In this document: piece after piece, positions 2,641 through 35,056 of the stretch
How positions within the stretch are numbered: the first letter of the stretch is position 1
Layout of the letters: each line of letters begins with the position of its first letter
Source of the DNA: Elusimicrobiaceae bacterium
GTDB lineage: Bacteria; Elusimicrobiota; Elusimicrobia; Elusimicrobiales; Elusimicrobiaceae
Reading direction: 5' to 3'
NCBI GenBank assembly: GCA_017417005.1
Contig: JAFQAA010000030.1
Coordinates: 1 to 51,333 of the forward strand
DNA: 51,333 nt
Notes under the pieces: generated by a model
What the model was told of the DNA's origin: nothing
Seen by the model: only the letters and a program-made list of their open reading frames with translations
The model's database searches: none
Made by a program: the position numbers and the translations under genes

Positions 2641-3867
2641 CTATTTTAAAATAGGTCCAAAGGCCTCTTCGCCTTTAACTTCTTCTACAAGAACATTAAA
2701 TAAACCTTGCGGTTTTTTGTCGGTTTTTATTAAAACGCGTTGGAAGTTTGAAGCAGTTGCACGAAGATAAGAATCTTGGAAATCTTCACCTATCACTTGT
2801 AAAATTTGGCCTTTTAATGTGGCGGCGGCATTTGCACGCAATTCTTTATCAAGTGCGTGTAAAATTAAACTTCTTTCTTTGATTATCTGTGGTGCAAGTT
2901 GCGCTATTTTGGCAGCAGGCGTTCCCTCGCGCGCGCTATAACTAAAAACATGAAGACCGGCAAATTTTGCTTTTTTTAGAAACTCGGCACTTATTTTGAA
3001 ATCTTCTTCTGTTTCCGTCGGAAAACCGGCAATAATATCGGTATAAACAAATAAATCTTTTATTTTTGTTCTTATATAATTTAACCGCGCCAAAAATTCT
3101 TCTGATGTATAATGGCGGCGCATATCTTTTAAAACTTTTGTTGAGCCGCTTTGAAGTGGCAAATGCAAATAAGAGCAAAACTTTTCCCCCGCTTTGCTTA
3201 AAACATCAATTAAATCATCACTAATTGTGTTTAATTCTATTGAGGAAAAACGCACGCGAAAATTGCCGGGCAAAGCAAAAATTTCCGAACATAAATCCGC
3301 CAGATTTGCCTTTGTTTTAGGACAAGAATAATTGCCAATATTTATGCCTGTTAAAACAATTTCGCTATAATTATTTGCAAGTAAATTTTTTATTTCACTA
3401 AGCACAATTTCTTTTGGTTTTGAAGTTTTTATCGGTCTTGTATAAGGCACAATGCAATAGGAACAAGAGCAGTCGCAACCATCTTGTATTTTAATAAAAG
3501 CGCGGCTGTGCCCGGCGTGTTCTTTTACAGACCAATCAATTTCTTTATTAAAAAGTGCTTTGGAAAGATCTTCTTTAAAATAAATTTTTAAAGTGGGGTA
3601 TTTTTGTAAAAGATAATCTTTTTTAACTCTTGCAAAACAACCGCTTACAACTATTTGGGCAGAAGGGTTTTGCTTTAAAAGCGTGCGGATAAATTTTTCG
3701 GCCTCTTTATCGGCATTACTTGTGACGGAGCAGGTATTTATAAAACACAAAGAGGCATCTTTAAAATCTTGGGTTATTTCGTAGCCTTGGTTTAAAAATT
3801 CTTCTAAAAGGGCTTCGCTTTCCACCTGATTTACGCGACAGCCGTAAGTTTTAATAAAAATCTTCAT
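2641..3867 (-). CDS. mtaB: Radical-SAM methylthiotransferase of the MiaB/MtaB/RimO family (MtaB-like)
   Basis: 408 aa. N-terminal UPF0004 cysteines (YGCRVNQ, NTCSVT, SGCFA) and the radical-SAM cluster motif GCDCSCSYCIVPYTRP (CxxxCxxC). The GC+VNQxESE start is MtaB-like. The subfamily call is tentative. Confidence 0.8.
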   Translation of the reverse strand: MKIFIKTYGCRVNQVESEALLEEFLNQGYEITQDFKDASLCFINTCSVTSNADKEAEKFIRTLLKQNPSAQIVVSGCFARVKKDYLLQKYPTLKIYFKEDLSKALFNKEIDWSVKEHAGHSRAFIKIQDGCDCSCSYCIVPYTRPIKTSKPKEIVLSEIKNLLANNYSEIVLTGINIGNYSCPKTKANLADLCSEIFALPGNFRVRFSSIELNTISDDLIDVLSKAGEKFCSYLHLPLQSGSTKVLKDMRRHYTSEEFLARLNYIRTKIKDLFVYTDIIAGFPTETEEDFKISAEFLKKAKFAGLHVFSYSAREGTPAAKIAQLAPQIIKERSLILHALDKELRANAAATLKGQILQVIGEDFQDSYLRATASNFQRVLIKTDKKPQGLFNVLVEEVKGEEAFGPILK

Positions 3868-4556
3868 TGCATGGCACCCCAGACGGCAGCAAAAGCGGCA
3901 CTTTGCGCGCGCAAAATAAAATCACCAAGACTAACAGAAATAATTTTGTTTTGTTTGGCAAGAGTAATTTCCTCGGGCGCGTATCCCCCCTCAGGGCCAA
4001 TAAAAATTGTTAGGTTTTGGGGGTTTAGTTTGCTAATTTGTTCTAAGATTGGTAAAGTGTGCTCATCTTCATAGCAAATTAAGGCCGGTTCTTTTATTGC
4101 TTTAACGGCATCAGCAAAGTTTTGCGGCTCAAGTATTTGTGGTAAATAGGGCGTGCCACATTGTTTTGCGGCCGATAAAATTATTTGTTCCCAGCGTTCT
4201 TGCTTGGTTTGCCATTTTTTAATTAAATCTTTTTCGCACCTTTTGGAAATTATGGGTTTTATAGCAAAAACACCTGCCTGCGTGCAAAGGTTTAAAAGTT
4301 CCTCTGTTGCAGGGCGAGATATGACGGAAAAACATAAAGTTATTTTGCGTTTTGGAGTGAAAGGTTTTAGAGTCTTTAAAATACTTCCGCTTGCAGATTT
4401 ATCTGTAAGGGTTTCAATTTTGCCAAGCCAAAGCCCGCCCTTGCCGTCAAATAAATTGATAGTATCGCCAACTTTAAAGCGGACGACTTTTAAATGGCTT
4501 GCTTCTTCTTGGTCCAAAACCCAAGTATTATTATTAACTTTTGCTATAAACTGCAT
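3864..4556 (-). CDS. rsmE: 16S rRNA (uracil1498-N3)-methyltransferase
   Basis: 230 aa. N-terminal PUA-like region (HLKVVRFKVGD) and C-terminal SPOUT knot motifs (IFIGPEGGYAPEE, SLGDFILRAQSAA). Overlaps the mtaB-like gene by 4 nt. Confidence 0.85.
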   Translation of the reverse strand: MQFIAKVNNNTWVLDQEEASHLKVVRFKVGDTINLFDGKGGLWLGKIETLTDKSASGSILKTLKPFTPKRKITLCFSVISRPATEELLNLCTQAGVFAIKPIISKRCEKDLIKKWQTKQERWEQIILSAAKQCGTPYLPQILEPQNFADAVKAIKEPALICYEDEHTLPILEQISKLNPQNLTIFIGPEGGYAPEEITLAKQNKIISVSLGDFILRAQSAAFAAVWGAMQ

Positions 4557-4600
4557 ACTTATATTTTACTTTTTTATAAGAGAGTTTTATAGAGAAAATT

Positions 4601-4638
4601 ACCCCCGTATATTTTTTGATATACGGGGGTTCTTTTTT
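4601..4638 (-). terminator. Intrinsic terminator downstream of gyrA
   Basis: Perfect 12-bp stem ACCCCCGTATAT / ATATACGGGGGT (4601-4612 and 4619-4630) flanked by A/T runs, immediately 3' of the gyrA stop. Confidence 0.7.
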
Positions 4639-4666
4639 ACTTAAACAACTAGGTTGCGATAAAAAC

Positions 4667-7156
4667 CTATTTTGTTAATTCTTCTTCTGTGCGTTCTTCC
4701 TCTTTGACGACAGGGGCAACACGGGCGATTTTGTCTTTTTCTTCAAGTTTGACTAGACGCACGCCTTGTGCGTTTCTGCCGACAGAGCGGATTTCTTCGC
4801 ATCTGATTCTGATAGCCATACCTTTTTCGGTAATAACCATTAAATCTTTAGATTCGTCAACAAGTTTAATACCTACCACTTGGCCGTTGCGTTCGGTCGT
4901 TTTAATGGTAATAACGCCGCTGCCGCCGCGGTTTTGGGTGCGGTATTCGCTAAACTCGGTGCGTTTGCCGTATCCGTTTTCGCAGACGGAAAGGACATCG
5001 GGTTGGGCGCCTTCTCTAGGTGCTTGTTCCATACCAACGACACTATCGCCTGAAGCAAGGCGGATACCTCGGACACCTTTAGCTGTTCTACCCATAGCGC
5101 GAACTTGGGTTTCGTCAAATCTAATAGATTTACCTTGTTTGGTGGCAATTAAGATATCGCTGTTGCCATGGGTTTCTTGAACGGAGATTAAGATATCGCC
5201 TTCTTCTAGACCAATAGCAATAATGCCTGTTCTTCTGATGTGGGCAAATTCGCTTAGTTCAACTCTCTTAATTGTGCCCATGCGGGTGCACATTGTAAGG
5301 TAAGTTTCGCCGCTGTTTTGTGGGTCAAAGTTTCTAAATGCAACGGCGGAGGTTACCTTTTCTTCGCCGGAAATTTGCAAGAGATTGACTATTGCTTTAC
5401 CTTTGCTTTGGCGGTTGCCTTCCGGTATTTCAAAAGCCTTTAAGGCAAACACTCTGCCGCGGGTTGTAAACATTAAGATTGTAGAGTGGCTGGAAGTTAC
5501 AAATAAGTGTTCAATAAAGTCTTCTTCTTTGGTTCTTCCGCCGATAATGCCTTTACCGCCGCGGTTTTGTGATTTATAAGTATCAAGCGGAATGCGTTTT
5601 GCATAACCATCGTTTGATAAAGTAATAACCACATCTTCTTCTTCAATTAAATCTTCAATAGAGAAGTCTGTTAACTCATTGGCAATTTCGGTTTTTCTTT
5701 CATCGCCGTATTTATTAATAACTTCGGCTAATTCTTCAACGATGATATCCAAAATTCTCTGTGGGTTAGCCAAAATATCCTGCAAGTCCTTAATTGCTTG
5801 GGCAAGTTCTTTTTGTTCTTGCTCAATAGCAATAGCGCTAAGTTGGGTAAGTTGATGTAAGCGCATATCTAAAATTGCTTGGGTTTGGGCTTCGCTTAAT
5901 TTAAAGCGGTTCATTAAAGCAATTTTAGCAGCCGGAGCATCTTTAGAACCGCGGATAATTGCCACAACTTCATCCATATTTGCAATAGCAACAAGTAAGC
6001 CGTCTAAAATATGGGCGCGTTTAAGGGCTTTATTTAAGTCAAAGCGGGTTCTGTTGGTGATAACTTCCTGGCGGTGATGGATATACTGGCGCATAACTTC
6101 TTTTACGCTTAAAATGCGCGGTTTGCCATCAACAATAGCAAGCATATTGACGCCAAAAGAAGTTTGCAGTTGCGTATGCTTAAATAATTGGTTTAAAACT
6201 ACTTGGCCGGTTGCATCTCTCTTTAATTCAATAACAAGGCGCATACCTCTTCTGTCAGATTCATCGCGGATGTCGGAAATTTCGGTAATCTTTTTATCTT
6301 TAACAAGGCCGGCAATAGTTTCAATTAAAGAGGTTTTATTGACTTGGTAAGGAATTTCGGTAATAATAATTGCTTCCCTGCCGCCTTTCATTTCCTCAAT
6401 TTCGGCTTTGGCTTGGATGCGCACAGAGCCGCGGCCTGTTTCAAAATAATCATAAATACCTTTTGTTCCGCGGATAATGCCACCCGTCGGGAAATCCGGG
6501 CCTTTTACAATTTGCATCATTTCTTTTGTGGTAATTGCCGGGTTTTTAATTAAGGCAATAATACCATTACAGACTTCTGCTAAATTGTGGGTTGGAATAT
6601 TTGTTGCCATACCTACCGCAATACCGCTTGAGCCGTTAACTAAAAGTTGCGGTATTTTTGCGGGCAAAACTGCCGGTTCCATTAAAGAGCCGTCATAGTT
6701 AGGCACAAATTTAACGGTATCTTTATCTAAATCGTTTAATAACTCATCTGCTATTGCTTGAAGGCGGACTTCAGTATAACGCATAGCAGCCGGGCTATCG
6801 CCGTCAATAGAACCGAAGTTCCCCTGTCCGTTGACAAGGGTGTTTCTCATAGAGAAAGTTTGAGCCATACGCACTAAAGCATCATAAACGGAAGTATCGC
6901 CGTGCGGGTGATATTTACCAAGCACATCACCGACTACACGGGCAGATTTCTTGAAGGGTTTATTATATTTTAAACCCATTTCCTGCATAGCATATAAGAT
7001 TCTTCTATGAACAGGCTTTAAGCCGTCGCGCACATCAGGCAAAGCACGGCCAATAATAACACTCATAGCATAATCTATGTAGGAGTTTTTCATCTCCGTG
7101 CCGATATCTCTTTCTTTAATATTGCCAAATAAATCAGTTGTTTTTTGTTCTTCCAT
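4667..7156 (-). CDS. gyrA: DNA gyrase subunit A
   Basis: 829 aa. QRDR-like [18 protein letters not shown], active-site AAMRYTE, and C-terminal beta-pinwheel repeats (QNRGGKG, QNRGGSG). Confidence 0.98.
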
Positions 7157-7172
7157 AAAATCCTCTTATAAA

Positions 7173-9641
<2,469 letters not shown>

Positions 9642-9644
9642 TTA

Positions 9645-9947
9645 TTACTCCTTAAAAATAGAAATCTCTTTTATCCAGGCCCGCTGGAAATGTTTATTTA
9701 ATTCTTTTATTATTGTTTCCTTATTTAGTAAAAGTTCCTGCCTGGCCGAAACTACTTTAACTTTTACAAAAATCGTGTTTTTTTGCACGGCATAAAGTTG
9801 CCAAAATTTAGCTTTTGAACCAAGGGTTTTATTCCAAATATTTTCCAGTAAAACAAGCCTGTTTATCTGAGAACTAAAACGATTAAAGCTGTTTTTAAGT
9901 TCACTTGGTTCATGCCAAACTTCAGGCGGTTTTTGCCCTAACTTCAT
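9645..9947 (-). CDS. DUF721-type small protein (the dnaN/gyrB-linked family)
   Basis: 100 aa. Lies between dnaN and gyrB where DUF721 genes typically sit. Pattern W..tlG....F.......k...L.V.V.S....EL. 4-nt overlap with dnaN. Confidence 0.6.
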   Translation of the reverse strand: MKLGQKPPEVWHEPSELKNSFNRFSSQINRLVLLENIWNKTLGSKAKFWQLYAVQKNTIFVKVKVVSARQELLLNKETIIKELNKHFQRAWIKEISIFKE

Positions 9948-11047
9948 GCCCGCACCGGCATTATTACATATTTATATTGTGTTTTTCCTTCTTCTTCCAC
10001 CAAAACTGGTTGAGCAGCATTGTTAAAGGAAAATACTGCTTTACCAGAAATTAACTTTAAAACATCAATTAAATATTCCGGATTAAAAGAAGTTGAAAAA
10101 TCTTCTTTATCATAATCAATTTTTAATTCCTCTGAAAAATCCATTTTTGCGGAAGTTGAAGTAATTTTTATTTTATTTTCACTTAAAGAATATTTAACCG
10201 TTCCCCCTAAATCGCCAGCGCATAATGCCGCGCGTTTTGTGGAAGATAAAAGTTCCCCTACCTCTAAAGATAAAGAAAATTCTTTTTTGGAAGGTATAAC
10301 TTGTTCATAACTGGGGAAATTACCCTCAATTAAACGAGAGATAAAAATTGTTTCTTTAAAACTAAAGCTAACTTGGTTTTTAGAAACATTTACATCTATA
10401 AAATCATCCTCTGTCGGTTTATTAATACCAAGCAATTTAACAAGTTCATTTAAAATTTTACTTGGTATAATAACCCTAAAATCTTTAACCCCTTGTAAAG
10501 CGGTGTTTGTAGATAAAGCAAGGCGTCTGCCATCTGTTGCCACAACTTCAAATTTTTCCGGTGTGGAAACCCAAAGTAAGCCGTTTAAAACATATCTTGT
10601 TTCCTGGGTAGAAGCGGAAAAAATTGTGTGTTCTATAATATCTTTTAAATCTTTACATTTAAGGGTAAAAGTTTCCTCTTTTTCTATTGAGGGAATAATA
10701 GGATATTCTTCTTTTGGGGTTCCAATAACCCAAAATTTACTTCTGCCGCTTTTAATATGAAGTTTATTTTCTTCATCTGTTTCTAAACTAATTTCTTTAC
10801 CAGAAGGCAGATTTTTTAAAATATCAGAAAACTCTTTTAAAGGTATAGTAATAGCACCTTCTTCTATAACTTCGGCATTAATATTATGTATTGTTGCCAT
10901 TTCCATATCAGTTCTGGTAAGTTTAACTTTACCGGAAGAGGCTTCCATAAGAAAATTATAAAGTATAGGTAAAGTTGCTCTACCTGATACACCTGAAATA
11001 ATTTGGATACCTTCCAAAAAACTTTCTTTAGTAATATTTATTTTCAT
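9944..11047 (-). CDS. dnaN: DNA polymerase III beta sliding clamp
   Basis: 367 aa with a three-domain clamp-like pattern (TRTDMEMA, ATDGRRLA, YKYVIMPVR C-terminus). Immediately downstream of dnaA. Confidence 0.95.
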   Translation of the reverse strand: MKINITKESFLEGIQIISGVSGRATLPILYNFLMEASSGKVKLTRTDMEMATIHNINAEVIEEGAITIPLKEFSDILKNLPSGKEISLETDEENKLHIKSGRSKFWVIGTPKEEYPIIPSIEKEETFTLKCKDLKDIIEHTIFSASTQETRYVLNGLLWVSTPEKFEVVATDGRRLALSTNTALQGVKDFRVIIPSKILNELVKLLGINKPTEDDFIDVNVSKNQVSFSFKETIFISRLIEGNFPSYEQVIPSKKEFSLSLEVGELLSSTKRAALCAGDLGGTVKYSLSENKIKITSTSAKMDFSEELKIDYDKEDFSTSFNPEYLIDVLKLISGKAVFSFNNAAQPVLVEEEGKTQYKYVIMPVRA

Positions 11048-15083: not shown

Positions 15084-15598
15084 TAGATACCCGCGCTTTA
15101 GCAGATATGTCTTATGGCTTATTTATCATTGGTGCAAGAAAAGGCGAAAAGTTTAATGCTATGATAGCAAACTCCGTCTTTCAGGTGACAGCCGAGCCAC
15201 CAAAAATTGCCATTGCCTTAAATAAAAACTCTTTGACGCACGATTATATTAAAGCAACAGGCCTTTTTTGCGTGCAGGCAATAGAGCAAGGCGCAGATAT
15301 GCTCTTTATTGGCAATTTTGGCTTTAGAACAGGCAAAGACTATGATAAATTTGCTAAAGTATCTTATAAGTTAAGCGCGCAAGGTTTGCCTATAGTTTTA
15401 GATAATACTTTATCTTGGATGTCGGTAAAAGTGAACCAAGTTATTGACCTTGGCACGCACACAATGTTTATTGGTCTTGTGGAAGATACCCAGGTTATCA
15501 AAGAGGGCAAACCTTTAACTTACGATTATTATCAATGCGTTTTACGCGGCAAAACACCGCGCGGTGCAACAACATTTAAAGAAAATAAGGAGAAATAA
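15080..15598 (+). CDS. Flavin reductase-like (PF01613-type) NAD(P)H:flavin/rubredoxin oxidoreductase
   Basis: 172 aa. Pattern [18 protein letters not shown]...[10 protein letters not shown] typical of the flavin reductase domain. 4-nt overlap with fprA, and 2 nt upstream of rubredoxin. Confidence 0.8.
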
Positions 15599-29299: not shown

Positions 29300-30223
29300 A
29301 TGACAACACAAAAAAAATATTTAGTTACGGGCGGAGCCGGTTTTATCGGCAGTAATATTGCTTGGGAACTTATTCGCCAAGGTCATGCGGTAACCATTGT
29401 TGATGATTTTTCTTCCGGTCATTTTAAAAATTTGCTCGGTTTTAAAGGCGATATTATTACGGCAAATTTAGCCGAAACTTTGCCCCCGGCAGATTATTAT
29501 GATGCTATTTTCCATGAGGCCGCAATTACCGATACCGATATTCACGATCAAAAATTGATGATGCAGGTTAATGTAGAAGCTTTTAGAAATATTTTAAATT
29601 ATGCGGCCGATAATGAAGTTAAACGCGTTATTTATGCTTCTTCAGCGGCAACTTACGGAAATGGCGCTTGTCCTATGAGCGTAAACCAAACGCCCGCACC
29701 GGAAAATATTTACGGATTTTCTAAAGCCATTATGGATAATGTCGCGCGCGAATTTGCTAGCGATAACCAAGATATGAAAATAGTTGGTCTTCGCTATTTC
29801 AATGTCTATGGCCCGGGCGAATATTTTAAAGGCAAAACTTCAAGTATGATTTATCAGTTGTATAATCAAATGAAAAAAGGCCATAATCCAAAAATTTTCA
29901 AAATGGGCGAACAACAAAGAGATTTCGTTTATATCAAAGATATTGTTAAGGCAAATATGTGTGCTTTAACGGCAAAAGATAGTTGCGTTGTTAATGCCGG
30001 CACAGGAATACCTAGAAGTTTTAATGATATCGTTAAATGTTTAAACGAAGAGCTCGGCACAAAATTACCGGCAGAATATATTGATAATCCTTTTAGTTTT
30101 TATCAATTAAAAACCCAGGCCGATATTGCTTTAAGCAAAGAAAAAATAGGCTATACTCCGGATTGGACGCTGGAACTTGGCATAGAAGATTATGTAAAAG
30201 TTCTTGAAGCAAGGAATAAATAA
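29300..30223 (+). CDS. hldD: Extended-SDR NAD-dependent sugar-nucleotide epimerase, ADP-L-glycero-D-manno-heptose 6-epimerase (HldD)-like
   Basis: 307 aa. VTGGAGFIGSNI, AIFHEAA, YASSAATYG, N.YGFSK, VGLRYFNVYGPGE.FKG..SS, PKIF..GEQQRDFVYIKD, NAGTG..RSF and Y...TQAD all line up with my recollection of E. coli HldD. The SDR epimerase call is firm. The heptose specificity is tentative. Confidence 0.65.
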   Translation: MTTQKKYLVTGGAGFIGSNIAWELIRQGHAVTIVDDFSSGHFKNLLGFKGDIITANLAETLPPADYYDAIFHEAAITDTDIHDQKLMMQVNVEAFRNILNYAADNEVKRVIYASSAATYGNGACPMSVNQTPAPENIYGFSKAIMDNVAREFASDNQDMKIVGLRYFNVYGPGEYFKGKTSSMIYQLYNQMKKGHNPKIFKMGEQQRDFVYIKDIVKANMCALTAKDSCVVNAGTGIPRSFNDIVKCLNEELGTKLPAEYIDNPFSFYQLKTQADIALSKEKIGYTPDWTLELGIEDYVKVLEARNK

Positions 30224-32958
<2,735 letters not shown>

Positions 32959-33013
32959 TTTTTGCTTTGGCTTTTTTCCTCTTTTTTATTTTTTAAGATT
33001 TTCTATTATTTCC

Positions 33014-33038
33014 CTCCCTTCTTTTTTAAAGAGGGGAG
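33014..33038 (+). terminator. Hairpin downstream of the atp operon (possible terminator, no clean U-tail)
   Basis: 11-bp stem CTCCCTTCTTT / AAAGAGGGGAG with a TTT loop. The stem contains a G:U only when read on the plus strand. It is preceded, not followed, by T-runs. Confidence 0.35.
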
Positions 33039-33069
33039 TGCTAAAGGGTGGGGTATTGATAAAATTGTC

Positions 33070-33094
33070 ATACTGAGACGCTTTTTCTCAGTAT
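33070..33094 (-). terminator. Hairpin immediately 3' of the SNase-like gene
   Basis: Perfect 9-bp stem ATACTGAGA / TCTCAGTAT (33070-33078 and 33086-33094) starting 1 nt after the TAG stop. The tail GACAAUUUUAUC is only moderately U-rich. Confidence 0.45.
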
Positions 33095-33520
33095 CTATTC
33101 CTTATTGTTTTTACTCTTCCCCTTGTATTGAACGGCCAAACCAGATAGCAAAAGTTCTTCAGCTAAATTTATTTCTTCTTTTTCTTTTATTATGAAAACA
33201 TCACATAACAGGCGGAAATATTTATCTCTCTGGCAGTTTTCTAAAACAATTTTTCCGTTAACTAAATATTTTTCAGTAAAACTTTTTGCCTGTTTTGCTT
33301 TTTGTTTTTGGCAAGTATTTTTTGTTGTTATTTCCGGCGTATCAATACCTTTCACGCGGACTAAAATATTTTTACAAAAAATCTCTTTTTTACAAGGCAA
33401 ATTAACTTTAAAAGTATCCCCGTCGTAAACAGAAATAAGTTTTACTTTTCTAAAATTATCAGTGCTTGCGCAAGCCGCGCAAAAAAAACAAATAATAAAT
33501 AAAAAATAAATTTTACCCAT
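33095..33520 (-). CDS. Staphylococcal-nuclease (SNase/thermonuclease)-like secreted lipoprotein
   Basis: 141 aa. Signal/lipobox-like MGKIYFLFIICFFCAAC. SNase OB-fold motifs VYDGDTFKV and VRVKGIDTPE. Confidence 0.8.
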   Translation of the reverse strand: MGKIYFLFIICFFCAACASTDNFRKVKLISVYDGDTFKVNLPCKKEIFCKNILVRVKGIDTPEITTKNTCQKQKAKQAKSFTEKYLVNGKIVLENCQRDKYFRLLCDVFIIKEKEEINLAEELLLSGLAVQYKGKSKNNKE

Positions 33521-33573
33521 AAAAAACGGCTGCTATATTTGAATAGATAGACAGCATCCAAATATAACAGCCG
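33521..33573 (-). terminator. Strong intrinsic terminator abutting the start codon of the SNase-like gene
   Basis: On the minus strand: CGGCUGUUAUAUUUG - 17-nt loop - CAAAUAUAGCAGCCG (15 bp with one G:U), then UUUUUU (33521-33526), then the ATG (33518-33520). Confidence 0.75.
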
Positions 33574-33700
33574 TGGTTTGCCGTTCTTAAGAACGGCAAA
33601 CGCTCAACACACTTAGGTGGCCGCCCAAGTGTGTTTAAAACGACTGCTTTTGGTGTCTATCTATTGCTTTTGCAATACTCCGTATTTATACGGACCAAAA
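33521..33700 (-). ncRNA. Candidate structured cis-regulatory leader or small RNA of unknown class (5' end not defined)
   Basis: Five consecutive hairpins plus an 11-12-bp long-range complementarity (33542-33552 with 33655-33665) to the terminator loop. See the first finding. No match to any RNA family signature I can recall. Confidence 0.5.
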
Positions 33701-33762
33701 ACATTTCAAATTTTCATAAGTAAAAATACTTATAATTTTAGTATATCAAATTTATTTAAAGC

Positions 33763-33808
33763 AAAAAAATACGCCCTATCTTTCTTTGTTTATAGGGCGC
33801 GTTTTTTT
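33763..33808 (-). terminator. Intrinsic (bidirectional-looking) terminator 3' of the thioesterase gene
   Basis: Stem CGCCCTAT / ATAGGGCG (33772-33779 and 33792-33799), flanked by A7 on one side and T7 on the other. Confidence 0.7.
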
Positions 33809-33822
33809 ATTTTATCAACAAA

Positions 33823-34236
33823 TTATTTTCTTAGTGGTCTTTTAATTCTGCTTGGCTCAAGTTTAACAACATCTCTAAAATACTTAGGCCATTTGCCCAG
33901 GCGGCCTTCCTTGCTAACGCAAGCAAGCGAGGTTGTTCCTTCTGTCAAAAGTTTGCCGTCTTGGTTAAAAATCTGATATTCATAAACAAGTCTAACTGCG
34001 CTCATTTCTATTGGGTAGGCTTGCACATCAATTATGTCGCCATACATAGCGGGCGCGCGGTAAAAAATCTCTTGATGATTAACAACAAAATAGCAATTAT
34101 CTTGCATAAGTTGTTTTACGGTTAAACCCATTTTTTCCAGTTCTTCGGTTCTTGCTTCTTCAAAAAATCTTAAATAATTTGCGTGATAAACAACACCGCC
34201 ACAATCAGTATCGTAGTAATAAATATGTCTTTTCAT
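33823..34236 (-). CDS. 4HBT/YbgC-type acyl-CoA thioesterase
   Basis: The track ORF extends to 34278. The likely start is MKRHIYYYDTDCGGVVYHANYLRFFEEART (ATG complement at 34234-34236), which is the hotdog-fold YbgC signature (D.D..G.V.H..Y). Confidence 0.85.
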   Translation of the reverse strand: MKRHIYYYDTDCGGVVYHANYLRFFEEARTEELEKMGLTVKQLMQDNCYFVVNHQEIFYRAPAMYGDIIDVQAYPIEMSAVRLVYEYQIFNQDGKLLTEGTTSLACVSKEGRLGKWPKYFRDVVKLEPSRIKRPLRK

Positions 34237-34297
34237 AAACGCCCCCGGTAAAAAATACTTATAAAAATATAATATCATTTTATGCTAAAATAATGTT

Positions 34298-35056
34298 ATG
34301 AGTAAAGAAACATCAAACAATTTTTTAAATATTTTATTTCTCTTTTTTCTAGCTTTGGTAATAGCTTATCCTGTTAGTGTTTTTATCAAAAATAGGCGCG
34401 ATTTATCTAAGGCTATTACGCCCCAGCAGCGGCAGGCTTTTATTTCTGACGAGGTTTTTTCCCAAAATGCGCAAAGTAATTTAATAAACCTTGAACCCGG
34501 TGCAAGAATCGGCGAAGGCTATAAAAGCGTTTCTTATGCAAATGATGGCAGCGCAATTATCCGCGTTACCATAAACAATGTTGCAAATCTTACTAAAGAG
34601 GAATTTGCCCTAGTCGGCAGCACCCCTTTTAGTTTGCTTAACAGCGTGCGCGCAAATATTAAAACACCGCAAGTTTTAGATGTCGTTTTTAACGATGATA
34701 TTATTGTTAATGCTTTTTTTGCTAGAGAAACCACCCAAAATTTAATTAATAACCCACAAGTTCTTGTTGATATGGTAAGCCGCAATGATAAGGAAGTTTC
34801 CGATTTTATAAATCATCCCGCTGTGCAAGAAGCTCTAAACTCTAAAGAAGTTTTAAATGTTCTTGCCGGCAGTCAAATGTTTGCCAATCTTTTAGCCAGT
34901 CCCACAGGCAAGTTTTTCTTAACCAACCCTGATGAAGTTAAAAGATTAATTAACCAAAACCAAGATTTAAAAGCTTTATCTGAAAATGAAAATTTGCGCT
35001 ATCTTTTGCTTAATTTTGCACCGACAAAAACCCCTGCTCAAATAGCTTTAAATTAG
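34298..35056 (+). CDS. Hypothetical membrane-anchored protein
   Basis: 252 aa. One N-terminal TM segment (FLNILFLFFLALVIAYPVSVFI) followed by a soluble, Asn/Gln-rich region with no motif I recognise. Length and the lack of a competing ORF support coding. Confidence 0.6.
   Translation: MSKETSNNFLNILFLFFLALVIAYPVSVFIKNRRDLSKAITPQQRQAFISDEVFSQNAQSNLINLEPGARIGEGYKSVSYANDGSAIIRVTINNVANLTKEEFALVGSTPFSLLNSVRANIKTPQVLDVVFNDDIIVNAFFARETTQNLINNPQVLVDMVSRNDKEVSDFINHPAVQEALNSKEVLNVLAGSQMFANLLASPTGKFFLTNPDEVKRLINQNQDLKALSENENLRYLLLNFAPTKTPAQIALN

Follow-up and report, generated by a model that had tools for sequence, protein, structure and literature searches.

A candidate family of attenuator-like leader RNAs upstream of prepilin-type and nuclease genes in Elusimicrobiaceae

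Four-segment attenuators, among them the trp, his and pheST leaders and the protein-controlled pyr (PyrR) and trp (TRAP) leaders of Bacillus, place three mutually exclusive helices (1:2, 2:3 and 3:4) and a U-tract between a promoter and the first gene. Control of a pilin gene by a leader RNA also has a precedent, the c-di-GMP-II (cyclic di-GMP) riboswitch found upstream of pilA1 in Clostridioides difficile. The Elusimicrobia are poorly studied gut and environmental bacteria with very large families of pilin-like genes. Here we describe a leader RNA encoded on the minus strand of a 51,333-nucleotide (nt) stretch of DNA from an Elusimicrobiaceae bacterium (contig JAFQAA010000030.1 of assembly GCA_017417005.1, hereafter the window), where it directly precedes the gene for an SNase-family lipoprotein. 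The RNA is one of at least 16 distinct and intact copies of a family, and we propose, with a probability of roughly 0.7, that it is a cis-acting terminator/antiterminator switch, that is, a four-segment attenuator without a leader peptide.

The leader shares the layout of the known attenuators. Its four exchanging strands (segments 1 to 4) can form the helices 1:2 (P1), 2:3 (the antiterminator) and 3:4 (P4, the terminator), the last of these followed by a U-tract, and it lies between a promoter and a gene of the same orientation, with no second promoter in between. Unlike the classical examples, it has no leader peptide, no PyrR or TRAP binding motif that we could see and no match to an Rfam leader family; two long covarying hairpins (P2 and P3) are held inside its antiterminator loop, a copy-specific block of 8–13 base pairs (bp) forms part of its antiterminator, and segment 1 can pair with segment 4, completing a four-strand exchange. 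In ON-type transcriptional riboswitches (pbuE adenine and c-di-GMP-II), as predicted here, the terminator takes its 5′ strand from the 3′ strand of the junction-closing helix and the nascent and full-length folds differ; however, the leader matches no riboswitch in Rfam 15, its junction is not invariant and its closing helix is 21–27 bp long. T-box leaders are likewise multi-hairpin RNAs of ~200 nt, and their antiterminator is stabilised over the terminator by a trans-acting partner, but the present leader has no T-box sequence, no specifier loop and no match to RF00230 at E ≤ 10, its variable block pairs within the same RNA rather than with a tRNA, and its antiterminator sequence is ACGGCUGUU/AACAGYYGU. 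Finally, the two copy-specific blocks, VAR1 in a single-stranded part of segment 2 and VAR2 in the terminator loop, could start a pairing that branch migration then extends into the adjacent helices, as in toehold strand-displacement switches and the kissing-loop antisense pairs CopA/CopT and RNA I/RNA II. This putative likeness is mechanistic only; both partners here reside in one molecule, upstream of chromosomal genes. What sets the leader apart is the combination of a copy-specific antiterminator block, four-strand exchange, P2 and P3 within the loop, an AUG placed on the U-tract and multiple orthogonal copies per genome.

In the window, a spacer of 302 bp separates the SNase-family gene (33095–33520, minus strand; Pfam PF00565, E = 5e-13), whose product has an N-terminus, MGKIYFLFIICFFCAAC, resembling a lipoprotein signal peptide, from a 4HBT thioesterase gene (33823–34278; PF13279 and PF03061). 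Since the thioesterase gene has its own intrinsic terminator at 33801–33763 (GCGCCCUAU/AUAGGGCG followed by U7, minus strand), which marks the upstream boundary of the leader, the structured RNA is a separate unit. A preliminary description of this DNA had drawn five consecutive hairpins, a U6 tract (33526–33521) and the nuclease ATG (33520–33518), with no GGAG-type Shine-Dalgarno site between terminator and ATG, and all of these are found on the minus strand exactly as drawn. It had missed helix P1, the complementarity beyond 12 nt, the promoter (33750–33740) with its hairpin P0, and the existence of a multi-copy family. Segment 33515–33720 folds at −88.5 kcal/mol on the minus strand, compared with −46.2 ± 4.0 kcal/mol for shuffled sequences (z = −10.5; none of 200 shuffles is as good), and at −66.1 kcal/mol (z = −7.3) on the plus strand.

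The family was assembled from several sources and comprises 17 covariance-model matches at 98–176 bits, 16 of them distinct and intact, plus a chimera, L001. A search with nhmmer of the spacer against fetched loci gave a variant of the window's locus and, in a 13-kb stretch of the metagenome-assembled genome RGIG5124, three homologous elements. A metagenome pattern scan filtered by a hidden Markov model gave five further copies; the pattern, CAAAA..ACGGCUGU..CAGCCG, was itself too loose, with 5 true copies by hidden Markov model and covariance model among the 120 stretches listed. The covariance model R1, run over loci reached through pilin-like homologues, added two more copies in RGIG5124 and one in GCA_054266335.1, and loci reached through SNase homologues gave four more matches. 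Two patterns run on a viral collection listed 29 stretches, none of them a true member, and a repeat search of the 51-kb window found no second copy there. The copies, with leaders of ~200 nt (~210 nt for the window's unit), come from a handful of Elusimicrobiaceae genomes and metagenomes, so family counts are to be read as lower bounds; RGIG5124 by itself holds at least five. The window's AtpD places it in the same family of bacteria, at 80–87% identity to Elusimicrobium and Elusimicrobiaceae genomes.

The RNA has no counterpart among known families. Rfam 15, searched as 4227 covariance models that include T-box, c-di-GMP-I/II, purine, ZTP, cobalamin, 6S, SRP, tmRNA, PyrR and leader families, yields only a tRNA-Gly at gathering threshold over the whole window, and at E ≤ 10 only chance-level matches in 33300–34000 (14–25 bits against thresholds of 43–195). 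The 12 loci with other copies that were searched show no family at any copy, and the L115 copy has no match even at E ≤ 1. Membership of a known RNA family is thereby ruled out, in agreement with the failure of the preliminary description to recognise any familiar signature. A full-text literature search, which took in motif-discovery papers and was not exhaustive, did not find the motif described. By sequence comparison, then, the leader is a member of an undescribed Elusimicrobiaceae RNA family.

The first of the two folds consists of P1, P2, P3 and P4. Segment 1 (UGUUUUUGG, 33703–33695), nearly invariant and acting as the putative anti-antiterminator strand, pairs with 33653–33645 to form P1, an outer helix that encloses two small hairpins and VAR1. 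The first hairpin, P1a (33694–33679, UCCGUA/UACGGA), is present at this place in all copies with varying sequence; the second, P1b (33675–33664, UUGC/GCAA), is present in the predicted fold. Hairpins P2 (33635–33606) and P3 (33601–33576, 11 bp with a UUAA loop) show compensatory changes at 11 of 12 and 9 of 10 pairs, respectively. P4 is a 16-bp stem (33574–33559 with 33541–33526) with the base ACGGCUG/CAGCCGU, followed by U6; segment 4 comprises its 3′ strand (33541–33527) and the U6 tract (33526–33521) and contains CAGCCGUUUU, invariant in 16/16 copies. A G+C-rich hairpin followed directly by a U-tract on the transcribed strand is what defines an intrinsic (Rho-independent) terminator, and by sequence P4 qualifies as one. 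A simple terminator scanner missed P4, whose loop is longer than 8 nt.

Covariation supports all four helices. In a model-guided alignment of the 16 distinct copies, which is fitted to the model's own structure, 95.8% of the helix positions are paired, compared with 82.8 ± 0.8% in shuffles (0/500 reach the observed value) and 34–56% in slid-alignment controls, and compensatory changes occur in 26 of 45 pairs compared with 14.9 in shuffles. P1 (UGUUUUUGG/CCAAAARCA) is 96.9% paired with two compensated pairs; this helix and the P4 base hardly vary, as expected of strands that have two partners. The alignment contains ~50 G·U cells that would be C·A mismatches on the opposite strand, and the RNA strand is therefore the minus strand of the window. 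The preliminary description had argued as much from the single wobble of the last stem, which is indeed G·U on the minus strand. Conservation and covariation in relatives, which it had proposed as a check, are thus both present. Outside the modelled helices, we observed one covarying pair between the junction strands J2/3 and J3/4 (window positions 33603 and 33575), which reads GAGUG...CC-ACGG in most copies and AAAUG...CU-ACGG in four; this change from G-C to A-U extends P3 past a one-base bulge. By eye, no consistent complementarity was seen for a loop-loop contact between P1a and P2.

The second fold is built on the complementarity of VAR1 and VAR2. The preliminary description had found the terminator loop to be complementary over 11–12 nt to a stretch about 100 nt upstream; the match is real, perfect and 12 nt long (VAR1, AAUAGAUAGACA, 33665–33654; VAR2, UGUCUAUCUAUU, 33553–33542), and AAUAGAUAGACA and its complement are the only two matches in the window, where 0.16 are expected by chance. 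An equivalent pairing of 8–13 perfect pairs is kept in 16/16 intact copies, each with an unrelated sequence. Cognate VAR1:VAR2 duplexes have a mean energy of −17.2 kcal/mol compared with −6.6 ± 2.4 kcal/mol for non-cognate ones, the cognate partner is the best in its own row and column in 16/16 copies, and in a 12-copy permutation test 0/100,000 permutations match the observed total. The complementarity does not stop at the VAR blocks. In the window it continues as CCAAA:UUUGG and then CAGUCGU:ACGGCUG, giving a helix of ~25 bp that competes with P1 and P4, and across the family it runs through CCAAA:UUUGG into AARCAGYYGU:ACGGCUGUU, that is, the 3′ strand of P1 against the 5′ strand of the terminator. 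The resulting segment 2:3 helix, which measures 21–27 bp in each of the 16 intact copies, encloses P2 and P3. The conserved part of segment 2 (CCAAAAGCAGUCGU, 33653–33640) thus serves either as the 3′ strand of P1, paired with 33703–33695, or as the 5′ strand of the predicted antiterminator, paired with 33574–33558. The conserved part of segment 3 (ACGGCUGUUAUAUUUGGAUGC, 33574–33554), in which ACGGCUGU is invariant across all copies, serves either as the 5′ strand of P4 or as the 3′ strand of the antiterminator. The L005b copy provides three-way covariation: a change in segment 2 from CCAA to UCAA is met by UUGG to UUGA in both segment 1 and segment 3, and a change from CAG to UAG in segment 2 is met by CUG to CUA in segment 1 and leaves a G·U pair with segment 3.

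VAR2 fills the P4 loop and part of the upper stem, with linkers of 0–4 nt, and because of this the full VAR helix and the full P4 cannot coexist. The pairing is therefore better read as an alternative fold than as a static pseudoknot, so that of the two arrangements offered in the preliminary description, alternative pairing or pseudoknot, the first fits, in the form of the segment 2:3 antiterminator, and the second fits less well. The same geometry bears on a purely structural role, in which the leader would be a static 5′ untranslated region, for example a processing element or one that stabilises the mRNA, containing a true pseudoknot and not switching. VAR1:VAR2 covariation by itself proves only that the blocks pair, and P1 to P4 are all conserved, as such an element would also require. 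Yet the VAR helix of 8–13 bp is incompatible with a full P4, the complementarity runs on into strands of P1 and P4 (CCAAA:UUUGG and CAGYYGU:ACGGCUG), and a hairpin with a U-tract directly before a gene would stop transcription unless countered. We consider a static element very unlikely. In the attenuator that we propose instead, a conserved alternative helix would sequester the 5′ strand of the terminator, as is characteristic of attenuators.

The mechanism envisaged is as follows. Transcribed from its own extended −10 promoter, the attenuator of ~210 nt would present four exchanging segments: segment 1, UGUUUUUGG; segment 2, VAR1 plus CCAAAAGCAGUCGU; segment 3, ACGGCUGUU..UUUGG..VAR2; and segment 4, CAAAUAUAGCAGCCG plus U6. 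In fold 1, segments 1 and 2 would form P1 and segments 3 and 4 the P4 terminator, and transcription would stop 1 nt short of the nuclease ATG. Fold 2 would instead join segments 2 and 3 in the 21–27-bp antiterminator over P2 and P3; segment 4 would be free or paired with segment 1, and RNA polymerase would read into the gene, with the AUG region unstructured in the nuclease copies. In these copies the same switch may gate translation too, P4 ending 6 nt before the AUG and fold 2 leaving the region single-stranded. The VAR1:VAR2 block would be the part of the antiterminator with a single pairing partner and, for that reason, can covary freely; a segment with two partners cannot, and its sequence stays fixed.

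Minimum-energy folds computed for transcripts of increasing length suggest an order of events. In all 16 intact copies P1 is present once P3 is finished; the first 9 nt of segment 3 then form ~8 bp with segment 2 and open P1 in 14/16 copies, and once VAR2 is complete the 21–27-bp antiterminator has the lowest energy, an advantage that lasts for at least the next 10 nt. P1 and the terminator reach the minimum only after segment 4 is complete, with the exception of L212, which has a weaker terminator and remains in fold 2. In the complete leader, fold 2 lies only 0–10 kcal/mol above fold 1, and segment 1 often pairs with segment 4 as well. The attenuator-like layout suggested by the preliminary description is thus borne out to the extent that the complementarity it noted belongs to an antiterminator that, by prediction, prevails in the nascent RNA.

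Several considerations weigh against the attenuator. We infer termination, read-through, the 5′ end and the regulation of their ratio from sequence; the folding order is a thermodynamic proxy and not a kinetic simulation; and the conserved parts of segments 2 and 3 hardly vary, which puts their pairing beyond the reach of the covariation test, while VAR1:VAR2 taken alone would also fit a static loop-to-bulge tertiary contact. The junctions are unlike those of most riboswitch aptamers, J1/2 consisting of 4–7 A/U-rich nt and the L250 copy lacking GAGUG. Given the length of the antiterminator, any regulator would have to intervene before this helix is made, and the terminated RNA may have a function of its own.

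If the attenuator has a small-molecule input, it would be an ON-type riboswitch, a special case in which the three-way junction of antiterminator, P2 and P3 is the aptamer and ligand binding holds the antiterminator closed and the pilin and nuclease genes on. The strand shared between closing helix and terminator, known for instance from the pbuE adenine riboswitch, is as this would require, as is the prediction that the junction fold has the lowest energy in the nascent RNA and the terminator fold at full length. There is some conservation in the junction (UUUA-GG, GAGUG and the covarying G-C/A-U pair between J2/3 and J3/4), and the coherent gene set of ComP_DUS-type pilins and SNase hints at a DNA- or nucleotide-related signal. 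On the other hand, the junction strands vary in length and sequence as just described, the invariant stretches are confined to the exchanging strands, a closing helix of 21–27 bp is far longer than in known aptamers and no Rfam aptamer matches. We regard a riboswitch as unlikely. Because the invariant nucleotides sit only in the exchanging strands while the junctions vary, we slightly favour, as the input of the proposed attenuator, a trans-acting factor on the exchanging strands or P1, such as an RNA-binding protein or chaperone, over a small-molecule aptamer. In order of preference, the input could be a protein or chaperone on P1 or the exchanging strands, a ligand at the antiterminator-P2-P3 junction, or purely kinetic control.

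The genes that follow the leaders are consistent with a role in cis. Each copy precedes a gene of the same orientation, one copy being cut off by the end of its locus. These genes are prepilin-type (N_methyl, often with ComP_DUS) in nine cases, SNase lipoproteins in four, and a GT2 glycosyltransferase and an unknown gene in one each, so that the preliminary description, which saw the leader of an SNase-like gene, was right for this locus, but most members of the family precede prepilin-type genes and not nucleases. The start codon falls 1–47 nt after the U-tract in 12 copies and 109–139 nt after it in 3, and in most of these gaps a separate promoter is unlikely because the gaps are too short. 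In all four SNase homologues examined (the window's protein and three that share 64–72% identity with it), the RNA ends exactly at the ATG, as had been noted for the window. The four genes occupy four different chromosomal positions and lack a Shine-Dalgarno site, the abutment being seen in L244, L247, L250 and the window. The placement of a start codon directly on the terminator U-tract is thus a conserved arrangement.

These observations also bear on whether the unit is a stand-alone gene for a trans-acting small RNA, whose ~210-nt terminated product would be functional with the VAR2 loop as its seed, the downstream gene being accidental and reached by leaky read-through. A conserved promoter of its own, a protective 5′ hairpin, a strong conserved terminator, several copies within one genome and the exposure of both VAR1 and VAR2 in fold 1 would all suit such a gene. 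It would not explain why the unit always directly precedes a gene of the same orientation, most copies leaving too little space for a second promoter, or why the ATG abuts the U-tract in 4/4 nuclease homologues at four different loci; moreover, the VAR sequence has no further match in the 51-kb window at ≤ 1 mismatch, and a selected antiterminator would be purposeless in a pure small RNA. A small RNA gene of this kind is quite unlikely.

The different positions of the nuclease genes raise the question of mobility. An 847-bp block of the window (32976–33822), comprising the nuclease gene, leader, promoter and thioesterase terminator, is absent at the same site in L244, which has 23 nt there (5921–5959) between flanks ~85% identical to those of the window. 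L244 carries its own nuclease and leader (3681–4687) between uvrB and tRNA-Gly, and the other nuclease-plus-leader homologues lie after pnp, beside lplA/OAD genes or before rpmB. RNA and nuclease are also both absent at this site in the closest Elusimicrobium genome of the collection searched, L008 (AtpD 87%), and in eight other Elusimicrobia atp loci, which rules out a spacer conserved by synteny. Judged by these comparisons, the nuclease-plus-leader block behaves like a movable cassette, although no recombinase or transposase gene is linked to it in the loci examined.

Two further copies deserve mention here. In L212 (3794–5013, GCA_054266335.1), the RNA and a prepilin gene form a cassette between phage-type genes (head-tail connector PF12236, GP7, Bbp19 and terminase PF03237), like a moron in a prophage. 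The chimera L001 (161–347) lies at a contig end and represents the window's locus in another sample. From ACCACGGCUGUU onward, its 3′ half matches the window exactly, and its 5′ half and promoter derive from a different paralogue carrying AAGGAG. In L001, VAR1 no longer matches VAR2 and the antiterminator cannot form (energy difference 18–22 kcal/mol); the copy is either a natural recombinant or an assembly artefact.

The leader might accordingly be asked to act in DNA, as the end of a mobile cassette or a recombination site whose hairpins are inverted repeats. The presence of nuclease and leader at different chromosomal sites in relatives, the empty site in L244, the copy among phage genes and the recombinant appearance of L001 all point that way. 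The helices, however, tolerate G·U and not A·C, a strand specificity expected of RNA; the leader always faces the downstream gene in the same way; promoter and U-tract are both conserved; the leaders have no linked recombinase or transposase gene; and the inverted repeats differ between copies, such that one recombinase could not recognise them. Cassette mobility is, moreover, compatible with an RNA explanation, and a DNA-level element is highly improbable.

As the 1:2, 2:3 and 3:4 topology is that of the trp and his leaders, we also considered ribosome-mediated attenuation through a leader peptide. One copy, L181, has a Shine-Dalgarno-led open reading frame of 41 codons (773–898) that runs through segment 1, P1a, P1b and VAR1 into P2. 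It is the only one of the 13 copies examined with such a frame over segment 1; the others have non-conserved frames of 3–41 codons there, none preceded by a Shine-Dalgarno site, and no peptide is conserved. We therefore reject leader-peptide attenuation, which has barely any likelihood. In L115, L125, L180 and L001, an AAGGAG lies between the promoter and P0 without a usable start codon.

The 5′ region of the leader is conserved as well. Box A, an extended −10 promoter (TTTGATATACT, 33750–33740, consensus TTTG(n)TATA(A/C)T), is kept in nearly all copies 14–70 nt upstream of P1. Because this conserved box is usually followed by P0, we place the probable transcription start near 33733. P0 (33733–33716, AUAAGUA/UACUUAU) is a 5′-terminal hairpin found in most copies and covaries in the SNase-linked ones (UAAGUA/UACUUA in L244, GUAG/CUAC in L247 and AGGCAAA/UUUGCCU in L250). 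Directly 5′ of P1 lies Box B (GAAAAUUUGA, 33715–33706), an A/U-rich, TAnAAT-like linker (AAAAUUU) conserved in all copies, which could be a second −10 box or promoter, or an RNA A-run that pairs with the terminator U-tract, as it does in the predicted fold.

The leader is not a general attribute of pilin-like genes: prepilin genes in L206, L208, L211 and L213–L216 have no leader RNA, and the idea that all pilin-like genes carry one is false. Where the upstream regions of these RNA-less genes were read (L206, L208 and L211), they have a different conserved promoter with TTGACA, a 17-nt spacer and a TAnAAT box (L208 ~9830–9870, 4570–4610 and 15330–15370; L206 ~9000–9040 and 9945–9985; L211 ~10590–10630), and the spacer is largely an A11 or T11–12 homopolymer. 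Homopolymers within promoter spacers are classically associated with phase variation by slippage.

Two features of the surrounding genes lie outside the leader system. At 29300–30223 of the window, a gene of the NAD-dependent epimerase/dehydratase family lies within the ATP synthase operon, flanked by the genes for the alpha and gamma subunits, and the order is the same in L001. At 34298–35056, a conserved protein of 252 amino acids with a hydrophobic segment at its N-terminus and without a significant Pfam match is encoded next to the thioesterase gene here, in L002 and in L244, and L008 has a counterpart of 254 amino acids in the same neighbourhood.

Taken further than the attenuator itself, the family might be a new orphan regulatory class in which a signal (a metabolite or second messenger at the antiterminator-P2-P3 junction, or a dedicated RNA-binding protein) is relayed to ComP-like pilins and a secreted nuclease for surface or extracellular DNA handling, and in which the VAR1:VAR2 helices act as addresses kept orthogonal so that at least five paralogous switches per cell avoid cross-pairing in trans; we offer this as a tentative and somewhat doubtful proposal. 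As a candidate new class of cis-regulatory RNA in the phylum Elusimicrobia, the family is well supported. It appears to provide a natural four-strand exchange switch in which the strands with two partners are frozen and the helix with a single partner turns over fully between copies, and because of this both alternative folds are visible by comparative analysis alone. The leader is a compact, testable system and an orphan for which a ligand or protein can be sought. For the biology of these bacteria, it joins pilin-like genes and a secreted nuclease in one putative regulon, possibly one for the uptake or scavenging of extracellular DNA.

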